This document shows, piece after piece, positions 2,970-36,449 of a stretch of DNA of 36,449 nt (position 1 is its first letter; the number at the start of each line of letters is the position of its first letter). The position numbers were made by a program, and so were the translations under genes. This stretch comes from a virus. Lineage: Duplodnaviria > Caudoviricetes. The stretch covers positions 1 through 36,449 of the IMG/VR virus record IMGVR_UViG_3300036796_000273; one strand, 5' to 3'. A model generated the notes under the pieces. That model did not search any database, had not been told where the DNA came from, and saw only the letters and a program-made list of their open reading frames with translations.

Positions 2970-3430
2970 GACAGGAACCCGCCGACGGTATCGGAAACTT
3001 GCCCGGCCAGGTCTTCAAACTGCTGAGACAAATCGCCGAACATGTCTTTTAACCCTTCATCCGTGCGCTTAAGCGTGATGGTGAATTCAATGCGGCGGGC
3101 GGAGCCATCAGCAAAGAATAGGGTTTTGGTGCGGCTCAGGCTCTCAATCACAAACATGCCATGTATTGCGCCGCTCCCCTCAATCAATGACCAGGCTTTG
3201 CCGGTCTCGGCCATTAATTGGATAGCCATCAGGGAAACCCGGCCCCCGGTTAATGCCGGCAGCAAAACGCCGCTCAGCGTGATGGTTTCATCATCCGGCC
3301 CCAGGAACTGGCTTTGTGGGCGAAGCCCGACGCGGCTATTGGTCGGATGACGCCACGCCATCTGGTGTTGAAACTCCTGGTATGGAACGGTTTGCAACAT
3401 GAATACAAACATGCCTAGTGCCATCATCAT
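2966..3430 (-). CDS. U: Tail protein gpU
   Basis: MMMALGMFVFMLQTVPYQ...QFLGPDDETITLSG; start refined to 3430. Confidence 0.93.
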   Translation of the reverse strand: MMMALGMFVFMLQTVPYQEFQHQMAWRHPTNSRVGLRPQSQFLGPDDETITLSGVLLPALTGGRVSLMAIQLMAETGKAWSLIEGSGAIHGMFVIESLSRTKTLFFADGSARRIEFTITLKRTDEGLKDMFGDLSQQFEDLAGQVSDTVGGFLS

Positions 3431-3441
3431 AATGATCGTCC

Positions 3442-6363
3442 TCACTCGATATCGTTAAAACTGCTGTTCGCTCTGGATCTTGCCTGCCGTTCCCGTGCAT
3501 CCAGTTGCCGCGCGACTTCCCGCGCAATGTCCTGTGGGGTGTGGTGGGCCTGAGCGATAATCTGAATAGGGGCGTGAATGTCGATGTAAGTAGCACTGCC
3601 CTGGTGATGTGATGTCGTGGCCCCTCGCGGGTACTGGCTCCCCGGCAGGCTGTAGGGATGCAAGGGGGCGTTGGTAGCGGTAGCGGGGCCACCCATAAAT
3701 AACGCGGCCACTGCCGCCATGGCGGCGGTATTCTTGCGACTGGTGACATTAGCCGGCCCGTTGACAATTTCCGGGCCATATTCGCCCACCACGCCAAATT
3801 TCCCCAGCGGGATCCTGCCACCGCCGTCGTGTTCACCGGTGTAGCGGTGGCGTATTGCCGCTACTGAGTTGCCTTGTGGGCCGGGCGTCAATACCACACC
3901 AGCTCGGCGGGCCGCATCGGCAACGGCGGGGTTCGTCTGCGCTAAGATGCGCGTTTTTTCTGACTTGGTTTTAACTTCATCCAGTTTGCCCAGCACCCAT
4001 TTAATTGATTCTATGAGTAGTTTCAGCGGGGTAAGGGCTAATTCAATGCCGGCCGCCAGAAACTCACCGAACTTTTTCCCCGCTGATGCCGCGCTATCCA
4101 AATCTTTTTTGGTCGACTTTACCGGCGTTAGAAGATCGGTAAACCAACCCCACAAGGCTTTAACTTTGTCACCAATCCAGGTGAATACCGGCATTAGTGG
4201 TGCGAAAGCGTCTTTAATGGGGGCTGCCGCAGTTTTAAACCCATCAACCACGCCGCCCAGGAAAGCTTTGATGGGTTTCCAATATTTGTAAATCAGCAGG
4301 CCCGCGCCGACGACAGCGGCAGTGATCAGCCCAAGCGGGCTAACCAAAATGCCGAACATGCTCCCCAGTCCGCCCAGGGCAAAACGAAGGAAGCGCAGTG
4401 GGGATTTTGCCAGCCAGGCAAACACGCGGCCAATCCCCTTAATCCCTTTGGTTGCCGTCTGTAGCGGCGAAGATGCAAAAGACACGACAGCGCGGCCAGC
4501 ACCGCCAAGAAGCTGTTTGGAAAAGGTCAGTGCATTTTTACCCGCATCCAGAAGTTTTTTGCTAAAGCCAACAACCTGTTTTTTAGTGATCGGGGTGGTG
4601 CTGGCGAATTTCAGCATGCTGAGTGACAGGTTGGGCAGCAGTCGGATCCCGAGCTTGCGCGTACTGAATCGGAGCAGAGCGAACGGCCCCAGCAAGCCGA
4701 CAACGGCAATGGCCAGCGTACCGACAACGGTGGTTAAAATGGCAGCGGCTGCGCCAATTTTGACGATGGCGGCGCTGACTTTCGGATGCTCTTTCAGGAA
4801 TTCCGCGACACCGTGTAAAAAGTTGCTGATACCTTCTGCTGTTTTACGCAGCCAGCCGTCATTTTTCTCAAATAATTCAACACTGATATTTTCCAGAGCG
4901 GCAAGTAACAGCGTCATGTCACCCTTCAAGTTATCCAGCATGGTACTGGAAACCCGCCGGGCCTCCCCGTCATACTCACCCGGCGCGCCACGCATCTGTT
5001 GCAGCTTGCCGTCCGACGCTGCCCGCATCAGTTCACCAAATCCGGTGACCGCATACATGCCGGCAATGTCTTTAAAAATCTTGCCGCGATCGACGTTGCC
5101 CATTTTTGACGTTTTTTTGTCGATATCCTGGAGAATATCGACCAAATCACGCATGTTGCCGTCTTTATCTTTAGTTGTTACGCCCAGCTTTTTCACCGTG
5201 GCGCTGTTACCGATACGGCTCAGAATGGCTCGCATCGCTGTACCCGCCTGGCTCCCCTGAATACCGGCATTACCCATAATGGCCGTGGCGGCGGATACGG
5301 TTTCCAGGCTTTGCCCGTACTCACGCCCGACACCGGCGGAATATTTCAGTGATTCACCGAGCATGGGGATATCCACGTTATTCCGGGTAAACAGGGCGGT
5401 TAGCACGTCGGCTACCCTGTCCATTTTATCCGCAGGGATCCCCATGGCCGTTTGGATGTTTGACGCAATATCTGCCGTGGTACCAAGGTCGATGTCACCG
5501 GCAGCGGCCAGATTCAACATCCCCGGCATCGCTTTGATAACTTGCTGGGGTGAATAGCCGGTTCTGCCAAGGAAATATTGCCCCTCGGCCACCTGGAGGT
5601 CGGTGAATTTTGACGATAGCGGCAAGGTTCGCGCCTGGTGCCGCAAAGACTGCATTTGCGGATCGGCTTTGGTTGGGATGCGGGTCACTGCCTGGGTTTT
5701 ACTCATCATCGCATCGAAGTCATAGCCCACATGCAGGGCGTCAACCAGCCCACGGCCCATGGCGCGCCCGGTGGCCATTGACGTATAACCCACCCCGGCG
5801 GCCATCACTTTGCGCTGATTGCTTTCATCAAACTGATGGCGCGCGGCATTAAGCCGCTTTTGTTGCCGGGCCTGTTGGTCTAATCGTTTCTGTTGCGCGG
5901 ACAATGCGCCCGTTACCCCGGTGATGTTAGACCGCAGTGAACGCTGAGCCTCACCCAATCGATTTGTCGCTACGCCGCTGTTTTGCAGGGCGGTGCGCTG
6001 GTTTTGCAGTGAAAGACGCAGATCTGCGAATTTCTGTTGAAGTTTGGCCGCTTCTTCCCTGGCTTTCTGAAATTGGCGGGCCTGCTTGGCGGTCGGGCCG
6101 TCCGTGGATTTCAATGCTACAGCCAGAGCGCGCGCTTTTTCACGGGCCGTGCTTAGTGCTTGTGCGGCGGCAGCAACCTGGGTCTTTGTCTTGCGGAAGC
6201 CGTCAATTTTTCCGGCCTGAGTATCAAGCTGTTTTAACTGGTCTTTTGTGGCTTTAACCGACGCGGCCAGCGCTTTATTGCTGGCCTGCATGGATTTGAA
6301 CGGGCGGGTGATCTTATCGACCGCACTCAGTAAAACCTGCAACCGGAGGTTTTTGTCACTCAT
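3442..6363 (-). CDS. T: Tail tape measure protein gpT
   Basis: About 973 aa, Ala/Gly-rich, starts MSDKNLRLQVLLSAVDK; C-terminal GVVGEYGPEIVNGP. Confidence 0.93.
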   Translation of the reverse strand: MSDKNLRLQVLLSAVDKITRPFKSMQASNKALAASVKATKDQLKQLDTQAGKIDGFRKTKTQVAAAAQALSTAREKARALAVALKSTDGPTAKQARQFQKAREEAAKLQQKFADLRLSLQNQRTALQNSGVATNRLGEAQRSLRSNITGVTGALSAQQKRLDQQARQQKRLNAARHQFDESNQRKVMAAGVGYTSMATGRAMGRGLVDALHVGYDFDAMMSKTQAVTRIPTKADPQMQSLRHQARTLPLSSKFTDLQVAEGQYFLGRTGYSPQQVIKAMPGMLNLAAAGDIDLGTTADIASNIQTAMGIPADKMDRVADVLTALFTRNNVDIPMLGESLKYSAGVGREYGQSLETVSAATAIMGNAGIQGSQAGTAMRAILSRIGNSATVKKLGVTTKDKDGNMRDLVDILQDIDKKTSKMGNVDRGKIFKDIAGMYAVTGFGELMRAASDGKLQQMRGAPGEYDGEARRVSSTMLDNLKGDMTLLLAALENISVELFEKNDGWLRKTAEGISNFLHGVAEFLKEHPKVSAAIVKIGAAAAILTTVVGTLAIAVVGLLGPFALLRFSTRKLGIRLLPNLSLSMLKFASTTPITKKQVVGFSKKLLDAGKNALTFSKQLLGGAGRAVVSFASSPLQTATKGIKGIGRVFAWLAKSPLRFLRFALGGLGSMFGILVSPLGLITAAVVGAGLLIYKYWKPIKAFLGGVVDGFKTAAAPIKDAFAPLMPVFTWIGDKVKALWGWFTDLLTPVKSTKKDLDSAASAGKKFGEFLAAGIELALTPLKLLIESIKWVLGKLDEVKTKSEKTRILAQTNPAVADAARRAGVVLTPGPQGNSVAAIRHRYTGEHDGGGRIPLGKFGVVGEYGPEIVNGPANVTSRKNTAAMAAVAALFMGGPATATNAPLHPYSLPGSQYPRGATTSHHQGSATYIDIHAPIQIIAQAHHTPQDIAREVARQLDARERQARSRANSSFNDIE

Positions 6364-9340: not shown

Positions 9341-10453
9341 TTAGTTCCCTATAGCATACCAGTGAATTGTCGGTGTATAGCCCAATACGCGAGATGTTAC
9401 AGACACACAGGCCTGAGTTCTGGAGCCTGCTATCCCATCGGGGCCGGCACTCATATTGGGACGAACAAACGTATTAAACTCACTTGTTTGGCTTTCAAAA
9501 GTCGAACCGGCCAGATTAATAAAATTGATGAGCGCGACGTTAGGAAAAGCAATGTGATAAAACGGCTTTGAGAAATGCGTATACCACGTAGTTCCGCCTA
9601 CAGATTCCGCGTTATGATTCCCTACTGGCGGCAGCGTCCACATCCCCCATTGAATGACGATCCCGGACGGTAGATATTGAATACCGTTCCCCTCTTTCAA
9701 GCCCTGAAAAAATGACATATCGGGCAGTTGAGCATCACCATTTCCCACGCCGCGCTTTGCTGCCGACTTCAGTCCCAGATTATTAAAAAACTCATCGATA
9801 TCGAGAATGTCAGCGCCATTTTGGTCTTTTGCCAAGCCGCCTTTTGCAAGGTCATAAGCCGCCTTTACGGCTTTCGGTGTTGCTGCCAGCGTCTCGTTGT
9901 TACTGTCGGTGGCACTGCTCAATTGCACGAAGCCTTTTTCTTTCAGCGTGCCGTTCGGGTGATTGCGCGATTTTGCATGCTGGCCGATTTGTTCATCAAC
10001 ATACTGCCGCGTTGCCAACACCACGGCCGGGTCAATCTTAAGCGTCACTGCCTCGGTGCTGGAGACAATCAGCACCATGCGAATGGTTTGCGTGCGGCCG
10101 CTGCCCTCTTGTAATTGCGGCTTGTAGGTCTCCGGGCAATTGGCGACCGCAATCAGCGTGCCATCAGTAGAAAACAGACCAATCTCTCGAATCCACCAAC
10201 CGCCCTCATTTTCCGGGATGATTTGCTCGGCGATAATCTGGCTGTCATTACCGGGGTCAATGGTCAACAGATTGATGGCCGCGCGACGCTTTTCCCCCTT
10301 AAGTGCCGTTTGCGCCGCGTCAGGCGTCGGCAGGACGCCACCGCCGTCCCCGACGGCGATATGCGTCAGGTCAACGCGGGTGCCGAGTGCGGTCGCATTT
10401 GCCAGGGCTGCCGCACCCTGATTGGTCAGAATGGCAAAGAATTTTGCTGTCAT
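9341..10453 (-). CDS. H: Tail fibre protein (gpH-like, short)
   Basis: P2 gpH N-terminus (EQIIPENEGGWWIREIGL; KGFVQLSSATDS repeat) with a variable C-terminal domain. Confidence 0.9.
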   Translation of the reverse strand: MTAKFFAILTNQGAAALANATALGTRVDLTHIAVGDGGGVLPTPDAAQTALKGEKRRAAINLLTIDPGNDSQIIAEQIIPENEGGWWIREIGLFSTDGTLIAVANCPETYKPQLQEGSGRTQTIRMVLIVSSTEAVTLKIDPAVVLATRQYVDEQIGQHAKSRNHPNGTLKEKGFVQLSSATDSNNETLAATPKAVKAAYDLAKGGLAKDQNGADILDIDEFFNNLGLKSAAKRGVGNGDAQLPDMSFFQGLKEGNGIQYLPSGIVIQWGMWTLPPVGNHNAESVGGTTWYTHFSKPFYHIAFPNVALINFINLAGSTFESQTSEFNTFVRPNMSAGPDGIAGSRTQACVSVTSRVLGYTPTIHWYAIGN

Positions 10454-11061
10454 GCGCTTACTCTCAGGTTATCGATAAGATGAATTGCCGCACCGCAATA
10501 GCCGGTGCCGCCGACAGAAATGGTTTCGGGTAAATAGGGGTAAACGGTCAGGGCATCACCGCTGTAACTGGCTGCCCCCACATAGTCGGCACCAACACTT
10601 GAGAGGCTAATTGCAAGGCCGACAAGGTGCCGACTGGCGGGTTTGGCGTCAGCTATCATGCGCTCCAGCTCCCGATACATCTCATCGGTGATGCCGGTTT
10701 CCAGTACGCCGACAACCAGCCGAAACGTGCCTGGAGTTTCATTAAGTTGCCACCACTCGCGCACCTCAATCAGATAACCCAGCGGCTCAACGACGCGACG
10801 CAGTGCGCTGATGGTGCCTTTATGCCGGTGAACAAAATGCGCACTTTCGACAACGCTGCGTTTTGTTGCCTCCGGCCAGCGTTCATCCCATCGGTCGACA
10901 GAAAACGCCCACGCCAGATACGGCAACAGATTGAGCGGGCAGGTTTGCGGGTTCCAGAGCTGGCGCAGCGGTACCGGCACCCGTGCAAATTCAGCGCAGG
11001 CCGTGGCCGCCGCCACTTCTAACGGTGACGACCCGACCGGCAGCAGGCGGCCATCACTCAT
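10450..11061 (-). CDS. I: Baseplate/tail protein gpI
   Basis: LLPYLAWAFSVDRWD...HRHKGT. Confidence 0.95.
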   Translation of the reverse strand: MSDGRLLPVGSSPLEVAAATACAEFARVPVPLRQLWNPQTCPLNLLPYLAWAFSVDRWDERWPEATKRSVVESAHFVHRHKGTISALRRVVEPLGYLIEVREWWQLNETPGTFRLVVGVLETGITDEMYRELERMIADAKPASRHLVGLAISLSSVGADYVGAASYSGDALTVYPYLPETISVGGTGYCGAAIHLIDNLRVSA

Positions 11062-11962
11062 CGGATCCCCCTACAGTCAGTTGGTAGCGTGAACAACTTG
11101 ACGCCTGCGTCTCGTCTAAAACGATGTCGGCAACCGGGCTTTTCAGTTCCACCCGCTGCACGCCTTCCACATGCAGCGCGGCATAGATGGCCGACAGACG
11201 GATATCCCGGCCAAGGCGATGCTGCGTGCTGATATAGGCTTTTAGCCTTTGCTCAGAGGCCTGCCGAACAGGCTCAGCCTCCGGCCCCGGAAACAGGTAG
11301 AGCACGGCCTCAATCACATAGGGAACGATTGCCGCCGACTGTACTGTCACCCTGTCAGCCACCGGCCGCACATCCTCGGCATTGAGTGCCGCCGCGACAA
11401 GCGCAATCAGCTCCGGGCTGGCCGTGCCGTCACCCTCGCGAGACAACACAGACACGGTGACGCTTGCCGGTGTTGGGCTGGTGACAGACACGTCGGCGAC
11501 ACGGCCGTCAGCACTGCGACCATGGAACTGATACGCGCCGACCGACCCGGCCACACTCAGCCCTTCAAAGGCCTGCTGGATACGCACGCGGAAATCGCTG
11601 TCACTTTCCATAACGGCGGCCACGGGGGGCAATGTGCTGTCATCGGCCGGGGTAATCACCAGCCGGGCAACGTTATAATTGCCGCCGAGCTGGTCGAGAT
11701 CACTGCCTGCGGCATACCCCAGCATGACCGCCTGCGCCGCCTCATTAACCCGCTGGCGTAGTAGCACCTCACGGTACGCGTTCTCTTGCAGCAGTTTGAC
11801 GATGGGTTCCGACTCAAATTGCAGCGTTCGCCGGATGCTCTCTTGCTTATCTTCGGGGAACAGGGAGATAAACCAGGCTTTTCGCTCAGAAAATATCGAC
11901 TCGAAATCAAGCGGTTCAATAACGCTTGGTGCCGGTAGTTGGCTCAAATCAATGGTGGCCAT
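11054..11962 (-). CDS. J: Baseplate assembly protein gpJ
   Basis: MATIDLSQLPAP...FEGLSVAG. Confidence 0.95.
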   Translation of the reverse strand: MATIDLSQLPAPSVIEPLDFESIFSERKAWFISLFPEDKQESIRRTLQFESEPIVKLLQENAYREVLLRQRVNEAAQAVMLGYAAGSDLDQLGGNYNVARLVITPADDSTLPPVAAVMESDSDFRVRIQQAFEGLSVAGSVGAYQFHGRSADGRVADVSVTSPTPASVTVSVLSREGDGTASPELIALVAAALNAEDVRPVADRVTVQSAAIVPYVIEAVLYLFPGPEAEPVRQASEQRLKAYISTQHRLGRDIRLSAIYAALHVEGVQRVELKSPVADIVLDETQASSCSRYQLTVGGSDE

Positions 11963-12309: not shown

Positions 12310-12944
12310 GATGCTGGCCCCCCGGTGTTACCGCCGCCGTTTTGCACGTTGCCGTGATAATGGATGTGGATGATCACGCCGTTGGAATTAAAGCTGCCGC
12401 CGGTGTGGGTGATATTTCCGTACATTTCGCCGCCGTATTTGAGCAGCAGTGAACCGGCAATCAATTTATTGGTGCATTCCACCACGGGCGCATCCAAAGT
12501 GATCATCTGGCTGGCTGTCACCACCACGACGTTGGCGGTGGCGCTAATTTTTTCAGATGCCTGAATATCGGCCTGTTTCATGCCCTTTGCCGTCAGCGTG
12601 CCGTTTTCAGGCTCGTACTCAATGACCGCGCCATCGGGAAAATCCAGACGAACAGCATCGGGTGATGATGAGGCGGCAGGGTACTGATCCGAAAAGACTC
12701 CCGGCAGAACAAAGCCCGTGGTCAGTTCACCGAAGATGCTCAGTACGACCACCTGTTCGCCAACCGACGGGGCAGACCAAAAGCGCACGCGCCCGGCGCG
12801 TAGCGTCAACCAGTTCAGCCAGTCGGTTTCATTTTTCCCGATCTTCACGCGGCACAGGCCTTTGGCCGTATCCACTTCGGAGACGGTGCCAATGCGCACA
12901 ATGTTGGCCAGGAGGCGTTTTAGTTCGGCGATAGATGCTTTCAT
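12306..12944 (-). CDS. V: Baseplate spike gpV
   Basis: WSAPSVGEQV and C-terminal HxH iron-binding tip (HIHYH); start refined to MKASIAEL. Confidence 0.93.
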   Translation of the reverse strand: MKASIAELKRLLANIVRIGTVSEVDTAKGLCRVKIGKNETDWLNWLTLRAGRVRFWSAPSVGEQVVVLSIFGELTTGFVLPGVFSDQYPAASSSPDAVRLDFPDGAVIEYEPENGTLTAKGMKQADIQASEKISATANVVVVTASQMITLDAPVVECTNKLIAGSLLLKYGGEMYGNITHTGGSFNSNGVIIHIHYHGNVQNGGGNTGGPAS

Positions 12945-12986
12945 GCTGCCAGTGTGCCGCGTGCGGGCGCGGGGGGCATTTTGTGT

Positions 12987-13012
12987 GCCTTGTGCCAGCG
13001 ATGGCACAAGGC
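12987..13012 (-). promoter_or_regulatory. Ogr-binding site of the late V operon promoter
   Basis: Palindrome GCCTTGTGCCA-GCGA-TGGCACAAGGC containing TGT-N12-ACA. Confidence 0.85.
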
Positions 13013-13039
13013 GGTGGCGTGGTCAGTAAGGCGGGGTGA

Positions 13040-13495
13040 TTATTTGGCGATGTGCGTCAACGCCAGATCCTTAATCCATTCAATATCGGCATCGGTGAAG
13101 CCCAATAACTGCCGGCGCGCATAGCGCACGGTGGGGCCGTCTGGGCTGACCTTATCCCGCAAGCCGTAATGGTGGACTGCGGATAAATGGGTCACACCGG
13201 CGGCAAACGTCACGGCGGCTTCATCGGTGTTGGATTCGGTTTTCATAAAGCGTGCTGTGCGCAGTCGGGTAAACATCTTGCGGCGGATGCGCCCGTGCTT
13301 ATCTTGCCGCTTGTTTTTGCGCGGTATGTACGGTGAACCGTCCGGGTTCTTCTGTTCCTGGATGTGTTTTTGCTGGTGCTGGCGCAGCTCTTTGGCCACC
13401 TGGCGGGTAAATACCTGGCGCGATTGCGGGGAAAGCTGCTGGAGCAATACGGACAGCGTTTCGTCCAGTGCCTGAAAGTCGTTTAAGCTGCCCAT
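13040..13495 (-). CDS. S: Tail completion / virion morphogenesis protein gpS
   Basis: QKNPDGSPYIPRK...VHHYGL...RQLLGF. Confidence 0.92.
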   Translation of the reverse strand: MGSLNDFQALDETLSVLLQQLSPQSRQVFTRQVAKELRQHQQKHIQEQKNPDGSPYIPRKNKRQDKHGRIRRKMFTRLRTARFMKTESNTDEAAVTFAAGVTHLSAVHHYGLRDKVSPDGPTVRYARRQLLGFTDADIEWIKDLALTHIAK

Positions 13496-13950
13496 TCTGC
13501 CACCTTGTGGCCTTCCATCCAGACCTCATAACTACTGAGATCGCTCGGCGGCGGTGGTGGTTCATCCACATGCCTGACGTTCAGCTTGCCGTTGTCCTCG
13601 CTGACGATCACGCGTTCGGTCAATTTCAGATCAATGCTGATATCCCGCGCGGCATTATTCAGGAAATCGGCTTCAAAGGTGAAGCCATCGCCGCGTTTAT
13701 CCGGGTTGGCCATGATGTCGGGCTGATGGGTACGCAACCAATGCAGGATAGGCACGATCAACAGATTGGCGTCATCGGCATAGCTGGTCACGATAAGGTT
13801 AAGCGTGTACTGATATTCGAAAGACAGCGACGGGGCCAGGGTGGAGTAAATCACCCCTTTATCAATGAAAATGTGCAGGCAATCGGGGTTTTGCTTCACA
13901 TACTTTACGGAACCGCTCAGGGCCGCGCGAAGTGAGTCCGGTTTTAACAT
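13483..13950 (-). CDS. R: Tail completion protein gpR
   Basis: MLKPDSLR...SLSFEYQYTL...LTERV. Confidence 0.92.
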   Translation of the reverse strand: MLKPDSLRAALSGSVKYVKQNPDCLHIFIDKGVIYSTLAPSLSFEYQYTLNLIVTSYADDANLLIVPILHWLRTHQPDIMANPDKRGDGFTFEADFLNNAARDISIDLKLTERVIVSEDNGKLNVRHVDEPPPPPSDLSSYEVWMEGHKVAEWAA

Positions 13951-17761: not shown

Positions 17762-18559
17762 TTAACAGTCGGTTAGCTCGGCGCTTTCGCCACCCGTTGA
17801 CAGTTCGCGACGCTTGTCACTGCGGTCGGTGGTGCTGAGTTTGGTTTTCAGAGCAGAAAATGCCGTCTCGTTGGTGCTTAGCCGATCTGTCAGTTTTTGG
17901 ACGGCGTCTTTCATGTCATCCAGACCGGCAAGTTTTTCCTCGGCCAGCTGCTGCCTTTCGGCAACCAACTCCACAGCCTGGTGAACATCGATAAAGCGAG
18001 CATCATCAGAGGCCTGCCGTTTGCTGAACAAGGCTTTAATGCTGGTAAGCAGGTTCGGTTTTTCGGTTTCCGGCGTTTCGAATTCGAGAGTGGTTTCTTC
18101 GGCGGCAGAGAAAAACAGGCCTTTCTGTGCCAGGTGGTTTGAGCTGAATTTCATCGCCTCACTGCCGAGTGACGCAGGGTTGTCCGTGAACGCGAGGCCG
18201 GTCAGATAGGCTTTGTTGGTATCAGCGAATTTTTCGTAATATTCAATGCTGGTGAAAATCTTCTGGCGCTTGTTGTTCAACTGCACCAGGCCATCCGTCG
18301 CATCAACCTGGGCATAGAGCGCCAATTTGCCTTTCAGCGGGCCATCGTTGACTTCATCGGCACTCAGTGACAGCACATCACCATAAGCACAGAAGGTACT
18401 GTCAGGAAAAATGCTCAGGTAATGCTCAAGGTTGACGCGCGCCGCTTTGAACTGCTGGTTATAGGTTTCGGCCATCTCTTTGATGTGCTGGCGCTGGATC
18501 TGACGGCCATCGCTGGTTGCCCCCTCGACGGCGACACGGAAAGATTTTGAAATTGGCAT
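17762..18559 (-). CDS. O: Capsid scaffolding protein / protease gpO
   Basis: VEGATSDGR...NLEH...FTSIE...LAFTDNPASLG with Asp/His/Ser present; start refined to MPISKSF. Confidence 0.95.
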   Translation of the reverse strand: MPISKSFRVAVEGATSDGRQIQRQHIKEMAETYNQQFKAARVNLEHYLSIFPDSTFCAYGDVLSLSADEVNDGPLKGKLALYAQVDATDGLVQLNNKRQKIFTSIEYYEKFADTNKAYLTGLAFTDNPASLGSEAMKFSSNHLAQKGLFFSAAEETTLEFETPETEKPNLLTSIKALFSKRQASDDARFIDVHQAVELVAERQQLAEEKLAGLDDMKDAVQKLTDRLSTNETAFSALKTKLSTTDRSDKRRELSTGGESAELTDC

Positions 18560-18654: not shown

Positions 18655-18672
18655 TGTGTGGTGAATGGCACA
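18655..18672. promoter_or_regulatory. Ogr-binding site between divergent O and P operons
   Basis: TGT-N12-ACA (TGTGTGGTGAATGGCACA) flanked by CCT/AGG. Confidence 0.8.
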
Positions 18673-21687: not shown

Positions 21688-23445
21688 TCACTTAGGATAG
21701 TATATATCCATAAAATGTTTTTCGATTTCACCTATGGAGTCAAGAATTGGTTTGAATAAAGAAAAGTCAATGTCCTTCCTGTTTTTCCTAACGATAGAGT
21801 TGGCAAATTTGTCCTTGCCAAATGTAACTTTTGGATCGTAATTGTTACTTTTGTCAAATGTTTTTTCATCATGTTTCATGTTCAAGACTTTTTTTCTGAA
21901 AAAATCCTCCATACATGAATGATTATTTCCCTTTAATAGAGGGGTTAATACCACATAAAGATTATTTTCTAAATGAAGAAACTTGCTTTTTCTTACACCA
22001 TCTTGGTTTCTAGGTATGTGGGAGTATTCTTTTATAATATTATTAATAAAGTCAGATGGGCCAGTGTCATTGTCCAAAATAATTATAACTGGCTTCTTGG
22101 GGCGTTGTTTTATAAATTTCTTGCATTGTTCTTTGTGCCTCATGAAAAACCTTACATAGTCCGCAGCGCCACCCGAAAGGTCTAAGAAATATTTCTTTTT
22201 TGAATTTGCTTTGAACAGTGAAATCTTTAAAACTCTATTTTTTGATTCTTTGTCCACCTTAACTAGATTAGGATAGTTTAAATATAAAGAATCAATTGCA
22301 CATTTCAAGTAAATTGGATCTGTTTTACCTTCGGTCAAAATTGTTGTTTTTTCATTTCCATAAAAATATTTAAAATGTAAAAAATTACTGAATGCCTTTT
22401 CTCTTGAGCTCAGTCTCTGAGTGAAATCTATCCCAGCCTTCTTTAATACGTATTTTTCTGGATGCGAATTTTTTTTAACTTGAATTCTATTGTATTTATC
22501 AAGCATGTCGATATGAGTAAATCGACCTTCAAGCTCGTTTAAAAATCCTTTTCTCAGCTTTCCATTAATATCTTGAAGTGTGAATTCTCCATCTTTATAA
22601 AGCGCATGGGCCATAGCTCTAGTGGTTTTTATATAGTCCTTGTTAACATTTATTTTTTTGTTTACAGTTAACCCTGTTACTTGTTGTCTCGACGTATTTC
22701 TTAATACTCGTGTTTTATTCTGGTTGATTTTGAATCCTGCTCTAACTATCTCATTTATAAGCAGAAAGCCTAATTCATTAGAATTCTCATCGGTAACTAT
22801 TGTTTCAGGAAATTTTTTTTTGTTGGTTGAAAATGTTATATCATCTGCATACCGGCTGTAGCTGCATCCGAAAGTAGCTGCTAACTTTGATAATCGAATA
22901 TCTAAAATATTGCATATAAGGTTAGTTATCACCGGAGAGCAAGGGCTTCCTTGCGGTAACTTCTCATTAAAACAAGCTATTTGCGCAATGATTGTTGCAA
23001 TTGAAGGGTGTAATTTGAAATATTGATTCGCGATAAAATAACCACGAACCCTTCCAAAGTTGAATGTATTAAAAAAATCTTCCAAATCTATGTTCAGAAT
23101 GTTAGTTTTATTTCTATGCCTTTCAGCATTTGTTATTATTGTTCTGTTCTTTTCAAACCCATGGGATAGTTTTTGACTAATGTTGTTTTTTTTACAGATT
23201 TCATTTTGACACTCATACAATAAATTTGACAATCGCTTTTGTATGTCTTTTAATTTATCATTAGGGGCGGAAATTTCCCGGTCACCTCCAGATTTCTTTT
23301 TTATAATGAATTTTTTATACTGGTTTTCGGGTCTAATTCTATATAAAACATTTGTAAGGAATGAAACTTTAATCTGAAGTAGATCTGCTAGCTCAAATTT
23401 ATTCGTGCATGATTGGAGCCGTTCTAAATATGGGATGGTGAACAT
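21688..23445 (-). CDS. Retron Ec67-family reverse transcriptase fused to a TOPRIM nuclease domain
   Basis: 585 aa; LPQGSPCSP, YADD and retron region-Y VTG; C-terminal TEGKTD...LDND TOPRIM motifs; AT-rich. Confidence 0.93.
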   Translation of the reverse strand: MFTIPYLERLQSCTNKFELADLLQIKVSFLTNVLYRIRPENQYKKFIIKKKSGGDREISAPNDKLKDIQKRLSNLLYECQNEICKKNNISQKLSHGFEKNRTIITNAERHRNKTNILNIDLEDFFNTFNFGRVRGYFIANQYFKLHPSIATIIAQIACFNEKLPQGSPCSPVITNLICNILDIRLSKLAATFGCSYSRYADDITFSTNKKKFPETIVTDENSNELGFLLINEIVRAGFKINQNKTRVLRNTSRQQVTGLTVNKKINVNKDYIKTTRAMAHALYKDGEFTLQDINGKLRKGFLNELEGRFTHIDMLDKYNRIQVKKNSHPEKYVLKKAGIDFTQRLSSREKAFSNFLHFKYFYGNEKTTILTEGKTDPIYLKCAIDSLYLNYPNLVKVDKESKNRVLKISLFKANSKKKYFLDLSGGAADYVRFFMRHKEQCKKFIKQRPKKPVIIILDNDTGPSDFINNIIKEYSHIPRNQDGVRKSKFLHLENNLYVVLTPLLKGNNHSCMEDFFRKKVLNMKHDEKTFDKSNNYDPKVTFGKDKFANSIVRKNRKDIDFSLFKPILDSIGEIEKHFMDIYYPK

Positions 23446-24438: not shown

Positions 24439-25554
24439 CTAAATAGCTTTTCGCCTATAATTGAAGAGAGGAACGACATTAGAAGAATCTTCTTCGATAA
24501 CACTACCGTTCAAAGTCGGGTCATTTGCTAACTCTAATAGCATTGGCACAGTAATGTTAAGTCGATGAGCTAAATTTGACGCATTAATGTCCATTTCATT
24601 TAACAAAACATTCATAGCCTTATGAAACAACTCTGGTTTTTCGTGTTCAATCAAATAGTCTTCTTTTTCCTCAATAGCTTCACCTTTCCGCTTCAAGCCA
24701 AAAAATGCAGTTTTATACTGAGCATCGCTCAACAACGACAATTGGTGAGCTCGGTATATGATTGCCGCCTTGCTAACCTTCCAGGTTAATTTGAACTCAC
24801 TTAATCCCTGCCAGTCAATCCTTCCACCGATTGGGTGAGGAAAATATTTTGCCATTGCGCTACGAGGTAATAAAAGGGCTGAAGCAAATCTGTTCGCCTC
24901 AGACTCCGTTATACGATCTCCTGTTGATACACCTCCATGTAGGATGAGGTGACCAACTTCATGAGCAATGTCAAACCGTTGTCTACAAGGTGATTTTTTT
25001 GCAGTATTTCTTACAATAAAAGGCCTTTCAAGCGGCACAGATAATGCGTCCACTTCATCACTGACGGAGTCAAATGAGGTCACAAAAGCCCCCATTTTTT
25101 CAGCTAAACGAGTCATATTATCAATTGGGCCATAACCTAGCCCCCAATCTAAACGGCACGTTTCTGCTACCCGCTCAATTTCATCTTGAGTGTGGGCCTC
25201 CATTTCTTTGAACTTTACAGGCGGCAAATTAAGATTTTCTTCAAATACTTCAATAAGTCGTCTATAAAGCTCTGCCTTGGCAAGTGTTGCTAATTTAGTT
25301 ACCACTCGGGTTGAACTGCGTTTTCTAAAATGGACAATTTCCTCATTGAGATGAGGTTGCATTCCATCTTCGAAAAACGCGGTTTCAACCTTCAAAACGG
25401 CAGCTAACTCAGTAGCGAGTTCATTTGTGGGTACAGCAATGCCGGTCTCCAGCCGCTGAATGTATTGGCGGGTCTTATCGACCCGCTCAGCCACTTGCTC
25501 GAGGGATAACTCGTTAAACAGACGAGCTAACCGCAAATTAGAACCGTTAAACAC
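24439..25554 (-). CDS. XRE HTH plus ImmA/IrrE (M78) zinc metallopeptidase
   Basis: N-terminal HTH (LRLAR...LSLEQVAERV...IQRLETG); RQRFDIAHEVGH (HExxH) and ESEANRFASALLLP; GTG start. Confidence 0.92.
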   Translation of the reverse strand: MFNGSNLRLARLFNELSLEQVAERVDKTRQYIQRLETGIAVPTNELATELAAVLKVETAFFEDGMQPHLNEEIVHFRKRSSTRVVTKLATLAKAELYRRLIEVFEENLNLPPVKFKEMEAHTQDEIERVAETCRLDWGLGYGPIDNMTRLAEKMGAFVTSFDSVSDEVDALSVPLERPFIVRNTAKKSPCRQRFDIAHEVGHLILHGGVSTGDRITESEANRFASALLLPRSAMAKYFPHPIGGRIDWQGLSEFKLTWKVSKAAIIYRAHQLSLLSDAQYKTAFFGLKRKGEAIEEKEDYLIEHEKPELFHKAMNVLLNEMDINASNLAHRLNITVPMLLELANDPTLNGSVIEEDSSNVVPLFNYRRKAI

Positions 25555-25567
25555 TTTTCACCTACTA

Positions 25568-26167
25568 TTACCCATTGTTAAGCTTTTTATCGGCTGATTT
25601 ATCAGGCACTGATGGGCTGATATCATCCAGTTCGATAGACACAGGTTTTGGCGGAGTGTCGTCTGTAGAGTGCAGAACAGTTGTCCGATCATTACCATAC
25701 GTCCAAAGTGAGAGAATTTCTTCTAACTGATTGTAACCAACAAAGTGGATCCGAGCACCTTCCCCCTCAAATTCTGGTTTCTCTACAACAAAACGCCATA
25801 CAGTAGGGGTTGTATCGACGGGGGCAAAAAGCTGGTCCACACTATTTCTTCGGAAGAAACCCGGTTTTTTAGGGTTTTCAGGATCATCAGCAAAGAATCG
25901 AATTGGGATACCTTCAATTTCGAATGTGACATCCATTCCAGGGTTTGTGAGTTTGAGCCAATTATAACCTCCCTCCATGCACAGTTCGATTACCCGGTTT
26001 TTCTGCCGTCCGAAGGTGCATGTACCTCGCGTGTAATTGTCATCAAGAGAAGTTGTCAGTAGTTCAAACGTCTGGTCTAGAACCTTTAAAAGCTCTTTGG
26101 AAACAATGGTAAGGCGATCTTCACTTAACTGCGGGGTGAATTCCCAGGGTAAACGATGATTTGGCAT
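25568..26167 (-). CDS. Hypothetical protein, probable toxin/effector partner of the HTH-peptidase
   Basis: 199 aa ORF 13 bp upstream of the peptidase gene on the same strand; no family recognised. Confidence 0.7.
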   Translation of the reverse strand: MPNHRLPWEFTPQLSEDRLTIVSKELLKVLDQTFELLTTSLDDNYTRGTCTFGRQKNRVIELCMEGGYNWLKLTNPGMDVTFEIEGIPIRFFADDPENPKKPGFFRRNSVDQLFAPVDTTPTVWRFVVEKPEFEGEGARIHFVGYNQLEEILSLWTYGNDRTTVLHSTDDTPPKPVSIELDDISPSVPDKSADKKLNNG

Positions 26168-32183: not shown

Positions 32184-32327
32184 TTAGTCGTAATTGCGTT
32201 CTTCGGGTGGCAGACACTGGCTGTCAGATCTCTGGAGAGATTTGCAAACATGATAAAAAAACAGGCCAATCAGACCAAAAGCGACAACGGCCCCGATAGC
32301 CGCAATGGCAAGGTATAGAACCGTCAT
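32184..32327 (-). CDS. Small membrane protein (47 aa, absent from the ORF track)
   Basis: MTVLYLAIAAIGAVVAFGLIGLFFYHVCKSLQRSDSQCLPPEERNYD; ATGA overlap with the upstream gene. Confidence 0.65.
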   Translation of the reverse strand: MTVLYLAIAAIGAVVAFGLIGLFFYHVCKSLQRSDSQCLPPEERNYD

Positions 32328-32551
32328 TTCCGGTACTCCACGTTGTACGTTTCATGGGTCATTAACCGCCAATCCTTGCCGTCGTTTTTACTCAGCAAAC
32401 GCCAGCGGTAGCCAATATCTATTTTCAAATAGCCATGCGGCTTGATACGACGAAATACACGGTTACCACGGCGAAACTGAGACAATAATATAATTGCCTT
32501 GCGGTATATTTCCGGAGTGGTAGCAGTACCGGCAAGAGTGATCACGGTCAT
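32324..32551 (-). CDS. Small basic protein, ParE/RelE-like
   Basis: YLKIDIGYRWRLLSKNDGKDWRLMTHETYN, a pattern recalled from phage ParE-like proteins. Confidence 0.6.
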   Translation of the reverse strand: MTVITLAGTATTPEIYRKAIILLSQFRRGNRVFRRIKPHGYLKIDIGYRWRLLSKNDGKDWRLMTHETYNVEYRK

Positions 32552-33062: not shown

Positions 33063-33533
33063 ATGGAAATCTCTCTTTCTAAATACTACGGCTTGTTCAC
33101 CAATACATACAAAAACGTACTTAAAACACTAAAGCTGGAAGCTGATGAAATAAGCTGGCGTTCGGACAAGCAAAATTACCTGAGCGAACGCACTCTTAAT
33201 ATCTTCAAGCTTGATCTTCTCCTGTTTGGATATAAACAAGAAAACGATCCCCATCGGCTTATCCTCAAAGGTAAAAATGCACTTGTTTCTTACCTGGTGA
33301 ACAACAAAAAACTACCATTCGGTGATGCAAAAAATATCACTCTTGCAGATGCTTTAATTCTGCTCTCTGGCGAATTGAGAGAGCTAAAGGTTTCTGATGA
33401 AATCATGAGTCAACTAAAACAAGGTGATTTCAACTTTAATGACTACCATTCATCGGAGTTTGTTTTCCAATATCCGGGATATCAGGATGATGAATGGGAT
33501 CCGGATCTGTGGGATAAACGCTTGCTGAAATAA
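33063..33533 (+). CDS. Hypothetical accessory protein antisense to the early operon (possibly ECs1072-like)
   Basis: 156 aa AT-rich ORF with an AAGGA RBS; family resemblance is tentative. Confidence 0.7.
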   Translation: MEISLSKYYGLFTNTYKNVLKTLKLEADEISWRSDKQNYLSERTLNIFKLDLLLFGYKQENDPHRLILKGKNALVSYLVNNKKLPFGDAKNITLADALILLSGELRELKVSDEIMSQLKQGDFNFNDYHSSEFVFQYPGYQDDEWDPDLWDKRLLK

Positions 33534-33762
33534 ATTCGTTTCTTTCAGCTTCCCTTGTCTTCATTCGTTCGATTTCTAAATTTAACTCCTCGACACAGTT
33601 TGTTGAGGAGTTTTTCAGCTCTAGAGCATATTCCACGCTCCGCAGCCATGCTCGCAATTCGACATCGTTTAGGTTCCCTCTGTAGATAAATGGGCGTTTG
33701 GTCTTTTCCTCCGCAATAAAAATAACTTTACCATTGGCTGAAATCATATTGTTGGCTCCCAT
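33436..33762 (-). CDS. Hypothetical early protein
   Basis: AAGGGG RBS before MGANN; 3' end overlaps the convergent gene by 98 bp. Confidence 0.5.
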   Translation of the reverse strand: MGANNMISANGKVIFIAEEKTKRPFIYRGNLNDVELRAWLRSVEYALELKNSSTNCVEELNLEIERMKTREAERNEFISASVYPTDPDPIHHPDIPDIGKQTPMNGSH

Positions 33763-33868
33763 GTTTTTCCCCTTCGTTGTACCTATCTGGGAGCACACCC
33801 CACGACGCCAATCGCCCACACGTTGATGGAAGGGATGCGCTCTCAGATAGGGCCGGGCAACCCGGCCA

Positions 33869-34141
33869 TCAGGCGAAACACTGCATATCACGTGGCACAG
33901 GGATATCACCGTTATTGCAACGCAACATCAAAGCATCGATCACCGCAGCGGCCACGCCGTCGCCTGCGGCTTCTGCCGTGCTCAGCAAGCCAGTAAGGCC
34001 AACGCTCAAACGGAATGCATGGTCATTTAGTGAAACAGCCCGCACTGCCGGAGCGATAGCGCTGGCTGCATTGATGTTTTGGGCCTTGGCGTGGTACTGC
34101 GTCAGCAGATCGTCAACCAAAATGGTGTATGCCTGTTTCAC
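33869..34141 (-). CDS. Hypothetical early protein
   Basis: 90 aa; GTGA overlap with the upstream gene. Confidence 0.65.
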   Translation of the reverse strand: MKQAYTILVDDLLTQYHAKAQNINAASAIAPAVRAVSLNDHAFRLSVGLTGLLSTAEAAGDGVAAAVIDALMLRCNNGDIPVPRDMQCFA

Positions 34142-34746
34142 TTTGCCGCCTCCTGCTCATCAAAAACCAACGGATCGGTATCCAGGATTGTGGGGTTGGA
34201 TGTGATCCCGATGCCATAGAGCTGACTGGCCTCATCCCGGATCGCCATTGCGATGGCTGGGTAAGCTGGTTTTTGGTCTTTTTGCACCGATTTATAAAAA
34301 TCTCTCAAAGATGGCGTCTCAACGATACGAGCCATAAGCGCCACTTTACCTCCTCTCTCTCCCAGAGCGACTTCGATAACTTCACTCAAGGTTTTTCTGT
34401 CGTCGAATTCTATGCATACACCGACGTTGAAAAGATCAGGGTTGAAATTTGTCGCCATCTGCTTGAGCTGTTCGGCGGTTATTGCACGCCCGTCAGTGGT
34501 CACGCCTTCGATGGCTACCAAAAACCATTTGCTTCTAGTGTTTCGCCGCTTCTCGGCATATAGCTGGTGAATATGCTTGACCGCCCCGGCCTTCGAGTCA
34601 TAAAGACCGAACGAGTGATCGCCGAGACTGACTTCATATCTGGCGATTTTGCTCACAGCCGTTTGCGGGCGGTAGGTGATCACAAAGCCCCGATAACGAG
34701 AGGTGTTGCGGCTGATTTTGGTAATGACATGGCGCATGGTCTGCAT
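34138..34746 (-). CDS. Fusion of a DUF4761-like N-terminal domain with a degenerate gpO protease-like domain
   Basis: Residues 72-202 align by eye with the N-terminal domain of this phage's gpO (VAIEGVTTDGR; GKVALMA; GIGITSNP). Confidence 0.8.
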   Translation of the reverse strand: MQTMRHVITKISRNTSRYRGFVITYRPQTAVSKIARYEVSLGDHSFGLYDSKAGAVKHIHQLYAEKRRNTRSKWFLVAIEGVTTDGRAITAEQLKQMATNFNPDLFNVGVCIEFDDRKTLSEVIEVALGERGGKVALMARIVETPSLRDFYKSVQKDQKPAYPAIAMAIRDEASQLYGIGITSNPTILDTDPLVFDEQEAAK

Positions 34747-34755
34747 ATTCCCGCC

Positions 34756-35022
34756 TCAACTCATCTGTTCAACAAATTTCTCAGCGTGGCGCTTGGCGTT
34801 CAGATAAATGGCGTAAAGATTGACGCGACGCTTTGCACCAGGGCGCACTTGCAAAATCGGCAGGGCACCGGTATCGGCCTGTGTACGAATGGTTTGTTTG
34901 TTCTTCCCGATGCGCAGGGCGTAGTCAGAGATCGACTCTTCCAACAGGTCACCAAATGGATAATCAGCCGGCAGTTGGTTTTCCCTTACCCCAATCACCT
35001 TTTTTTGTCGGTTTTTGTTCAT
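34756..35022 (-). CDS. cox: Cox-like excisionase / early regulator
   Basis: First gene of the early operon, divergent from the repressor; YALRIGK...GALPI...RRVNL pattern. Confidence 0.75.
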   Translation of the reverse strand: MNKNRQKKVIGVRENQLPADYPFGDLLEESISDYALRIGKNKQTIRTQADTGALPILQVRPGAKRRVNLYAIYLNAKRHAEKFVEQMS

Positions 35023-35115
35023 AGTGATACCCTTTAAGATCACGCGATTTAAGTTATTAAAGGTTCATTCCAATGAACCAATGTAACAATAGTTCATAGG
35101 AATGAACCATGTCAA
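35005..35115. promoter_or_regulatory. Lysis-lysogeny switch: face-to-face promoters and two palindromic operators
   Basis: Rightward TTGTCG-N17-TACCCT (with TG); leftward TTGACA-N18-TATTGT; operators GGTTCATT-CC-AATGAACC (35062-35079) and GTTCAT-AGGA-ATGAAC (35092-35107). Confidence 0.7.
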
Positions 35116-35408
35116 GCATTCTAAGCGAGAAAGTGAAGGCTATCCGGAAGAGTGAAGGAGTGAGTCAGAGCGAATTTTGCGACATAACCGGTATATCAAT
35201 CAGTACTGTGAAGAAGTACGAAACCGGACTGATAGAGCCTGGCGGGGCGACTCTAATGAAGATAACGAGCAACCCACGCTTTAAGAAATACACGATGTGG
35301 CTAATGACTGGTGATGTTGCACCGGAGGTAGGACAAATATCTCCGGTTCTCTCCCCTAATGGGTATCCCAGTTCATCCAGCGACCAAAAAGGCAAAAAGG
35401 TTGGCTGA
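35109..35408 (+). CDS. C: Immunity repressor (P2 C-like XRE HTH)
   Basis: 99 aa HTH with FKKYTMWLMTG...GQISP; upstream of int. Confidence 0.9.
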   Translation: MSSILSEKVKAIRKSEGVSQSEFCDITGISISTVKKYETGLIEPGGATLMKITSNPRFKKYTMWLMTGDVAPEVGQISPVLSPNGYPSSSSDQKGKKVG

Positions 35409-35471
35409 CCGCATGGAAAATAATGCAGCGCTGGAAGCGGGGCGGCATTTGTTTCGAAAGGAATCTTTGGG

Positions 35472-36449
35472 ATGAGTATTAAATCGCTGGGCACTGAAGG
35501 CTATATGGTGGATGTGCGCCCCCAGGGTCGGACGGGTAAGCGAGTCCGCAAAAAATTCAAAACCAAGTCAGAAGCGCAGCAGTTTGAGCGTTGGGTTATC
35601 GCGACACAAAACAATAAAGACTGGGTAGATAAACCAGCCGATCAGCGGCCCTTAACGGAATTGATAGACCTTTGGTTTAAGCATCACGGTCAGAACCTAA
35701 AAGATGGCGTGAAGATAGAGCATAAATTGCAGGTGATGGCGGCCAAAATGGGTAATCCCAAGGCTTGCCAGATCACTCGATCTTTCTTTTCTGATTATCG
35801 TGTACTCCGTCTCGCCGAAGGCAGAAAGGCAAAAACCGTCAATCTCGATCAGGAGAAGCTTGGCGGTGTGTATTCCGTTCTCATCGATTTGGGGCTTTAT
35901 CACGGTGAACATCCGCTCAAAGAGATGAAAAAAATAAAGCTGCCGGATCAGGAAATGGGTTTCTTAACTCATGACGAAATCTGGCAGTTGCTCGACCGAC
36001 TTGAAGGTGATCATCTGAAAGCGGTTAAGTTGTGCCTGGCAACAGGGGCCCGCTGGGGGGAGGTGGTCAAACTTCGGCGGGAAGAGGTGATCGGCAATAA
36101 GGTGACTTACCTCAATACCAAGAACAGCAAAAACCGAACAGTGCCGATCTCAGTGGAGTTGTGCGGTGAAATTACCAGTGGGATTAAGGCTGGCCCCTTG
36201 TTTTCGGAGTTGAATTATCCGTATGTGAGAACGTGCATCAAAGAGGTTGCCCCCGGATTGCCGGCAGGACAGGCCGTTCACGTTCTGCGCCATACCTTCG
36301 CTAGCCACTTCATGATGAACGGCGGCAACATTCTGGCGTTACAGCGGATTTTAGGACATTCAAGCATTTTGCAAACAATGTCTTATGCGCATTTTGCGCC
36401 TGATTATTTAAGTGACGCTGTAAAATATAACCCATTAATAAAATTTTAA
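35472..36449 (+). CDS. int: Tyrosine integrase
   Basis: TGARWGE, HVLRHTFASH and LGHSSILQTMSYAH catalytic motifs. Confidence 0.96.
   Translation: MSIKSLGTEGYMVDVRPQGRTGKRVRKKFKTKSEAQQFERWVIATQNNKDWVDKPADQRPLTELIDLWFKHHGQNLKDGVKIEHKLQVMAAKMGNPKACQITRSFFSDYRVLRLAEGRKAKTVNLDQEKLGGVYSVLIDLGLYHGEHPLKEMKKIKLPDQEMGFLTHDEIWQLLDRLEGDHLKAVKLCLATGARWGEVVKLRREEVIGNKVTYLNTKNSKNRTVPISVELCGEITSGIKAGPLFSELNYPYVRTCIKEVAPGLPAGQAVHVLRHTFASHFMMNGGNILALQRILGHSSILQTMSYAHFAPDYLSDAVKYNPLIKF

Follow-up and report, generated by a model that had tools for sequence, protein, structure and literature searches.

P2-like phages encode gpO, a head protein in which residues 1–141 form a protease and residues 195–284 a scaffold, and its C-terminal scaffold domain is needed by P2 for procapsid assembly (PMC7552001, in the portion available). 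The question raised by the locus described here is why such a phage would carry, among its early genes, a second copy of the protease half that has lost two of the three catalytic residues. The copy lies in the window, i.e., the whole stretch of 36,449 nucleotides that was analysed (IMG/VR record IMGVR_UViG_3300036796_000273), which is a complete P2-like provirus adjoining ptsG. The window comprises int, C, cox, the early genes, A, a cargo hotspot, and the late operons, and close homologues carry Serratia labels. An initial annotation, made from the DNA letters, had described the gene at 34138–34746 as an early, apparently catalytically dead copy of the capsid protease domain fused to another domain, and had suggested that it could be a decoy for host defences or an inhibitor of head assembly by rivals.

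A gpO-derived domain in the early operon

The fused gene (34138–34746, minus strand) encodes 202 aa that, by ORF calling, Pfam, and PHROG, consist of an early protein of about 70 aa followed by a gpO-derived pseudo-protease. The cox-like gene that leads the early operon (34756–35025, minus strand) ends 10 nt before its start, and beyond it lies the divergent C-type immunity repressor (35109–35408, plus strand), both identified by Pfam and PHROG. On the other side, a 90-aa gene of phrog_2549 (33869–34141, minus strand), for which the ESM Atlas gave no usable match, overlaps the stop of the fused gene by 4 nt and forms the right border of the cassette slot discussed below. The window genome has two Phage_GPO matches, the fused gene and the phage's own full-length gpO (17762–18559, minus strand; Pfam and alignment), in which Asp17, His46, and Ser104 are intact. 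In the window and in all four other loci compared, the paralogue directly follows cox rather than lying between P and N in the late head operon, and a canonical gpO is present as a separate copy in the window and in three of the four records, the fourth being 35% complete. In P2 the equivalent slot contains orf78 and replication gene B (NC_001895).

Regarding expression, a sigma-70-type promoter match (10 of 12 positions, by consensus; 35086–35115, minus strand) occupies the position of P2 Pe before cox; one such site was found against 3.8 expected in shuffled sequences, and its position is what counts. Two copies of an 8-base motif flank its −35 and −10 boxes and are likely operators of the C repressor. 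A motif of the Ogr-type late promoter precedes gpO (18655–18672) as well as two other late operons, its 12 matches in the window being within chance overall, and no such motif occurs within 33112–36449. The gene had been placed right after cox and called early-expressed, and it does lie on the same strand as the Pe-type match and downstream of it; from this position we infer that the paralogue is expressed early from the Pe-type promoter. Among five RNA runs from two studies, three runs of the same study contain short contigs of low depth that overlap the gene in part, with similar pieces covering late genes, and such assembled contigs give no level, strand, or timing. A tick-metagenome contig skips the pseudo-protease domain.

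The pseudo-protease domain itself spans residues 72–202 (34141–34533, minus strand) and corresponds, by Pfam, hhalign, and AlphaFold2, to about residues 4–141 of gpO plus a short tail. Its residues 72–200 match positions 1–140 of the 268 in the Pfam profile Phage_GPO (PF05929) with 59 bits (E 7e-16), against a curated cut-off of 33.6 bits, and the two other forms of the family, stand-alone and fused B, score 50.9 and 50.4 bits. BLASTP of the fused gene against the phage's own gpO gives 28% identity (E 2e-10), profile–profile comparison by hhalign gives a probability of 99.9%, and the domain also matches PHROG families of head maturation proteases and scaffolding proteins. The homology to the N-terminal domain of gpO that had been proposed for residues 72–202 is therefore sound, and the three motif pairs said to be shared with the phage's own gpO are all present. 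As had also been noticed, the scaffolding half is missing: the profile match of the paralogues stops at position 140–141 of 268. The proteins all end 1–7 residues past the position of Phe141, the last residue of the gpO protease domain, whose invariant equivalent by alignment is Phe195 (34162–34164, minus strand), and the third clade, fused B, ends one residue past it. A sequence search of the PDB with the paralogue gave 0 matches, PADLOC and NCBIfam gave none, and the ESM Atlas matches of the domain are unnamed viral clusters and prohead-protease families.

The N-terminal domain (residues 1–70; 34537–34746, minus strand) belongs to phrog_2492 (residues 3–68, E 2e-13), is predicted to contain five strands and one helix, and is a separate gene in most related phages. 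It had been called DUF4761-like; the fusion stands, and the label is only indirect, in that UniRef gives this name to relatives of the N-part and Pfam itself yields no DUF4761 match at E up to 1. A fold search with this domain found no clear match (best Z 5.7), and BFVD none at E up to 0.001, which does not show that the fold is new.

The AlphaFold2 model of the pseudo-protease domain has a pLDDT of 91, and was built on an alignment of 125 rows, 19 paralogues and 106 true gpO, the fold being partly inherited from the gpO rows. In structure comparison (VIA) the model matches the VZV protease (1vzv; Z 10.7, rmsd 3.1, 113 aligned), T4 gp21 (5jbl; Z 9.0, rmsd 3.6, 114 aligned), and the HCMV protease (Z 7.4). 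The best BFVD match is a Serratia phage scaffold/protease (E 7e-9, TM 0.79), followed by prohead proteases, and Foldseek on the PDB places herpes proteases at the top, the best at an E of only 0.014. The domain is thus predicted to have the β-barrel fold of the assemblins and prohead proteases (VZV, T4 gp21, HCMV), from which it differs in its smaller size and in the loss of the catalytic His and Ser. A complex prediction for the pseudo-protease with the protease domain of the phage's own gpO scored 0.00 in two runs in which the controls did not fold, and counts neither for nor against an interaction.

Catalytic residues and the remodelled cleft

P2 gpO (NC_001895) has Asp at residue 19, His at 48, Ser at 107, and Phe at 141. 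The Asp, His, and Ser do not vary among all 132 gpO sequences compared, namely 130 representatives of at least 230 aa from a profile search, P2, and the window's own copy. Catalytic roles of Asp19 and His48 were reportedly established by Chang in 2009. In the alignment with 35 paralogues, the equivalent of Asp19 (Asp85; 34492–34494, minus strand) is kept in all 35; the Asp-Gly-Arg motif is preserved. The His48 column reads Phe in 30 sequences and Ala in 5 (Phe114 in the window; 34405–34407, minus strand), and the column of the nucleophile Ser107 reads Ala in 34 and Thr in one (Ala164; 34255–34257, minus strand). The spacing from Asp85 to Phe114 is 29 residues, the same as from Asp17 to His46 in the phage's own gpO and from Asp19 to His48 in P2. 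As to the register of the Ser, hhalign sets YPAI opposite YTSM and MAFFT is two residues off because of a four-residue insertion, with no Ser either way. The retained Asp, the His lost at an ungapped spacing of 29 residues, and the YPAI in place of the Ser motif, all first noticed in this one gene, are confirmed there, and the loss is shared by the family, in which none of the 35 members keeps the His or the Ser.

The changes go further than these two residues. Ser121 (34384–34386, minus strand; alignment) replaces a Gly that is invariant in gpO (Gly62) and is the only Ser invariant in the family; in addition, Thr106 is changed to Pro, a Pro-Ala motif retains only its Pro, and the loop after the His position is 4–7 residues shorter than in gpO. 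Asp85, Arg87, Ser121, and Thr182 are invariant among the paralogues, and Ser121 and Pro192 (both 35 of 35), with Pro163 and Ala164 nearly so, are constant across the three clades yet unlike gpO. Most of the invariant positions look structural, and no surface motif indicating a new activity was found. If a catalytic set had been relocated onto the invariant Ser121 and Asp85, perhaps beside Arg87 and Thr182, the protein would still be a hydrolase, which we consider very improbable: neither a His nor a Cys is invariant among the 35 paralogues, which tells against an intact alternative triad, the single invariant Lys (134) lies at a strand start and is common in gpO too, and P2 gpO with S107A is protease-deficient (PMC7552001, in the portion available). 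Judged from its sequence, the paralogue would lack catalytic activity.

Family, selection, and an optional cassette

The paralogues form three clades, about 39–51% identical, two of them fused and one stand-alone, and all lie in P2-like prophages that are almost only Serratia-labelled. Fused A comprises 21 sequences of 199–202 aa in 5 clusters, from S. liquefaciens, S. plymuthica, S. proteamaculans, S. marcescens, and other sources; a single record bears the name Staphylococcus aureus, probably in error, since a gpO from the cluster of the window carries an adjacent accession. The stand-alone clade comprises 9 sequences of 141–142 aa, including those of loci L004 and L005, where the paralogue is a gene of its own, flanked by the two neighbours that also border the domain in the window; the fusion is thus not essential. 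Fused B (194 aa) includes locus L083; among the 15 members listed of its cluster of 29, 6 have the domain and 9 have the N-gene alone, and 5 of these 6 are in the set of 35 paralogues.

In a tree of 71 rows, 13 paralogues fall on one side of a branch (100/99, with a bootstrap not fully settled and a long-branch warning), and clade B scores 120 bits against the profile of the other two clades, compared with 40–47 bits for canonical gpO. Since the stand-alone clade nests inside fused A (96/88), the fusion is likely the older state. Branches between clades measure 1.0–1.7 changes per site, versus about 0.3 for the end branches of gpO, and those within clades are short, a pattern that fits episodic conflict. 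A topology in which the paralogues are the sister group to the lineage of the phage's own gpO is not rejected (p-AU 0.64). A recent DNA duplication of the own gpO was considered as the source and rejected, the DNA similarity of the two genes being no greater than chance.

The range of the family appears narrow. Two pattern scans of GTDB found no further member, metagenome scans gave none or canonical gpO only, and 47 further viral loci were all canonical gpO with full tails. Annotated phages (389, 334, and 454 records) held one matching place per record, and the rows listed were canonical gpO where annotated. A profile search of 1.84 billion representatives recovered the fused and stand-alone clades, the third being absent among the best 150 of 428 matches, and such a search may miss further clades.

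Synonymous sites are saturated between the clades (47–50% protein identity), and dN/dS was calculated for two within-clade DNA pairs. The domains of the window and L001 differ by 5 synonymous and 4 non-synonymous changes (dN/dS 0.23, with an interval for this pair alone of 0.03–1.15), and the paralogues of L004 and L005 by 15 and 19 (dN/dS 0.34, Fisher p 0.004). The pooled value is 0.32, with a bootstrap 95% CI of 0.18–0.60; the paralogue family is under purifying selection. All 35 paralogues reach the end of the domain without a stop, a count of gene-called proteins in which pseudogenes are under-represented. Neutral or pseudogene-like evolution, which would have told against a repurposed gene, is thus not what the data indicate. 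In the L004/L005 pair, neighbour genes have dN/dS values of 0.11–0.14 and the portal 0.02, the paralogue evolving at two to three times the ratio of its neighbours.

The gene is an optional element. Among 93 distinct IMG/VR contigs that encode the ~70-aa protein (the best 80 of 136, with 13 more from another search), 4 have the paralogue and 89 do not. Both neighbours are present in 47 contigs, where they abut in 30, are separated by other genes in 13, and flank the paralogue in 4. All 30 paralogue-free genomes examined have a single Phage_GPO match. Besides the two fusions, a third arrangement is found, in which the stand-alone paralogue is coupled to the ~70-aa gene by a 4-nt overlap; in DNA alignment it sits exactly at the stop–start overlap of its neighbours, with the junction motif duplicated at both ends, and its short C-terminal tail derives from that motif. 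A single clade for the N-parts of fused A and fused B is rejected (p-AU 0.001), and therefore the cassette has recombined behind different alleles of the upstream gene; its carriers also have different gpO types. The N-domain of the window clade forms its own branch, with changes at positions nearly invariant in stand-alone copies.

These data bear on the possibility that the gene is a nearly neutral passenger: a piece of gpO that inserted in frame into the early operon and is only weakly kept for folding and translational coupling. Its rarity and frequent absence (4 of 93), a dN/dS two to three times that of its neighbours, and the easy exit offered by the short junction-motif repeat around the stand-alone form are in keeping with such an origin. 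However, three clades have persisted to synonymous saturation despite the ease of precise deletion, the pooled dN/dS interval excludes 1, and the 35 gene-called proteins include no truncated copy, with the under-counting of pseudogenes mentioned above; a passenger thus appears improbable.

Other genes occur in the same region of relatives. In L049, a gene (3315–3695, plus strand) that presumably encodes an Rrf2/IscR-type regulator-like protein, judged by eye, fills the slot after the ~70-aa gene, another captured domain in the cassette position. Exonuclease-like and PAPS-reductase-like genes, likewise assigned by eye, lie in the early operons of L083 (4905–5480 and 7008–8105) and L005 (4067–4912), and the region is therefore a general accessory zone.

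Possible roles of the early copy

A protease domain that is folded, selected, and non-catalytic would most simply act by binding, and its natural targets would be the substrates of gpO or proteins of the host that react to head proteases. Of the single readings, the most plausible, put forward here as a tentative one, is that this optional early gene encodes a non-cutting decoy, which would shield CBASS and other defences that sense proteases ahead of the appearance of active gpO. Made early, the pseudo-protease would bind without cutting and occupy the host's sensor of head proteases, e.g., the cleavable loop of a CBASS cyclase, and the active gpO, made late, would then mature capsids without raising the alarm. 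In the available portion of PMC12991175, T4 gp21 cleaves a loop of the cyclase and thereby activates CBASS, an effect that requires the active site of gp21, and such cleavable loops are found in about 24% of CBASS operons; CBASS escape mutations also map to prohead protease genes (10.1101/2023.05.21.541620, available portion). Because activation by gp21 depends on the active site, a dead copy would leave such a sensor untriggered, and the presence of T4 gp21 among the best structural matches of the predicted model (Z 9.0) can be counted in favour of the decoy. So can the retention of a dead domain under purifying selection, the residues constrained in the paralogues but unlike gpO, the presence or absence of the gene as an accessory cassette, and the long branches between clades. 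The narrower version, in which the early dead copy would cap the loop that serves CBASS cyclases, or a similar protease sensor, as a cleavable tripwire and let gpO pass unnoticed, we regard as rather unlikely.

Several points weigh against a decoy. The domain has only 28% identity to the phage's own gpO, its cleft is altered well beyond a clean Ser-to-Ala trap, and its dN/dS lies above that of its neighbours, with an interval in the window clade that reaches 1.15. The CBASS triggers named in the portions available of published work are T4 and Drexlerviridae proteases, P2 gpO not being among them, and the term "prohead" is absent from the available portion of a survey of STAND sensors. Moreover, a sensor that binds the fold could be set off by the decoy rather than blocked, and the defence cargo of the carriers is inconsistent: a retron and RosmerTA in the window, CBASS in L004, an unclassified gene in L128, and none seen in L005.

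Two other forms of binding have to be weighed against the decoy. The protease barrel may have been co-opted to bind an unrelated host or phage target, in takeover, replication, or the lysis–lysogeny decision, perhaps with its ~70-aa partner, and we would call this doubtful but a serious contender. The heavily remodelled cleft, the fusion to the ~70-aa protein in two of three clades and the 4-nt-overlap coupling in the other, the separate branch of the window-clade N-domain with its changed near-invariant positions, and the orf78 and replication gene B in the slot of P2 all fit an unrelated target, whereas a partnership with the ~70-aa protein sits poorly with the 89 of 93 contigs where that gene does without the paralogue, and a new target with invariant positions that look mostly structural and with no surface motif for a new activity. 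Alternatively, the domain may bind head proteins (the N-terminus of gpN or of the portal, or gpO), and thereby block capsid maturation of P4-type satellites or distant P2-type phages, or restrain its own gpO. Pseudo-proteases often regulate active relatives, and P4 derepresses the early operon of its helper, both of which speak for such interference, as does the almost exact match of the paralogue to the 1–141 protease domain. Although P4 builds its capsids from gpN and Sid, they are viable only with gpO (PMC6893505, available portion), which points the same way. We nevertheless find it unlikely: the paralogue has no C-terminal scaffold domain, and the four carriers with gpO and their nearest paralogue-free phages are 97–100% identical in the gpO domain and, at best match, 94–100% in gpN, so that the paralogue is not required for assembly and could not spare its own phage while acting on close rivals. 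The dominant-negative inhibitor of the initial annotation is weakened for this reason, as a poison of close rivals would strike the carrier too. Superinfection exclusion is not expected either, because repression of early genes is to be expected in a lysogen. What stands of the initial proposal is a repurposed pseudo-protease, in its paralogy to gpO, its family-wide loss of His and Ser, its purifying selection, and its early-operon position, to which the decoy function would be added.

Compared with known systems, the paralogue is homologous to the N-domain of P2 gpO (PF05929) over its whole length, with the same end at Phe141 and the Asp-Gly-Arg kept, and differs from it in the loss of His48 and Ser107, the missing scaffold, the early operon, the fusion or coupling to the ~70-aa protein, and its optional presence. 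With T7 Ocr, Acb2, and Acb4 (PMC12409349, available portion) it would share the logic of a non-enzyme phage protein that occupies a defence component, a role that for the paralogue is a proposal; there is no link in sequence or fold, and those proteins mimic DNA or soak up nucleotide signals, whereas the paralogue would derive from the trigger protein. P4 Sid and the capsid and scaffold homologues of PICIs are likewise parts of head genes reused in conflicts between mobile elements (PMC6893505, available portion), but the paralogue is borne by a helper-type phage, derives from the protease half and not the scaffold, and lies among early genes.

The family is real, old, selected, narrow in range, and apparently undescribed: the full-text literature, with most subscription papers beyond reach, yielded no description of an early gpO paralogue, and in a survey of 5945 P2-like genomes, where gpO is a hallmark gene, the word "paralog" is absent from the text available, though its supplements may list the family (PMC13100340). 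In NCBI and UniRef the paralogues go by the name "GPO family capsid scaffolding protein". They depart from gpO in four of its defining features (His, Ser, scaffold, and operon) and should for this reason not be filed as scaffolding proteins, a name that hides their dead, scaffold-less state and their wrong operon. They clearly exemplify how an enzyme of virion assembly can be reused without an enzymatic role, and their function is easy to test, because natural plus and minus alleles exist in otherwise near-identical phages. If the copy blocks the triggering of CBASS, it would give a handle on how the sensor recognizes its trigger and on whether P2 gpO is one. Should the decoy prove true, it would represent an anti-defence protein class that intervenes in sensing, as well as a viral pseudo-protease with an assemblin fold, the phage's own immune trigger turned into a countermeasure, with a reach limited by a small, almost Serratia-only family.

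Finally, the carriers bear other cargo. In the window, the hotspot between A and Q holds a retron RT–Toprim fusion of type I-C (21688–23445, minus strand; NCBIfam retron_Ec67_fus, 704 bits) and a RosmerTA pair (24439–26167, minus strand; RmrT 25568–26167, RmrA 24439–25554), and the prophage also bears dam and dcm genes. The hotspot of L004 holds a two-gene CBASS, a 2TM effector with a cyclase (9965–11280, plus strand), and that of L128, the closest relative of the window, a 390-aa gene (12371–13543, plus strand) with an HNH-like Cys/His pattern near its N-terminus. The early operon of the window includes a gene with a ParE-like domain (32324–32551, minus strand; PF24732) and no evident antitoxin. 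Facing this operon is a gene of the ECs1072 family (33063–33533, plus strand; phrog_5286), whose spot is taken by a different gene in L001 and by a relative in L004; it is covered by long contigs in three RNA runs of one study, and is a probable lysogen-expressed moron.
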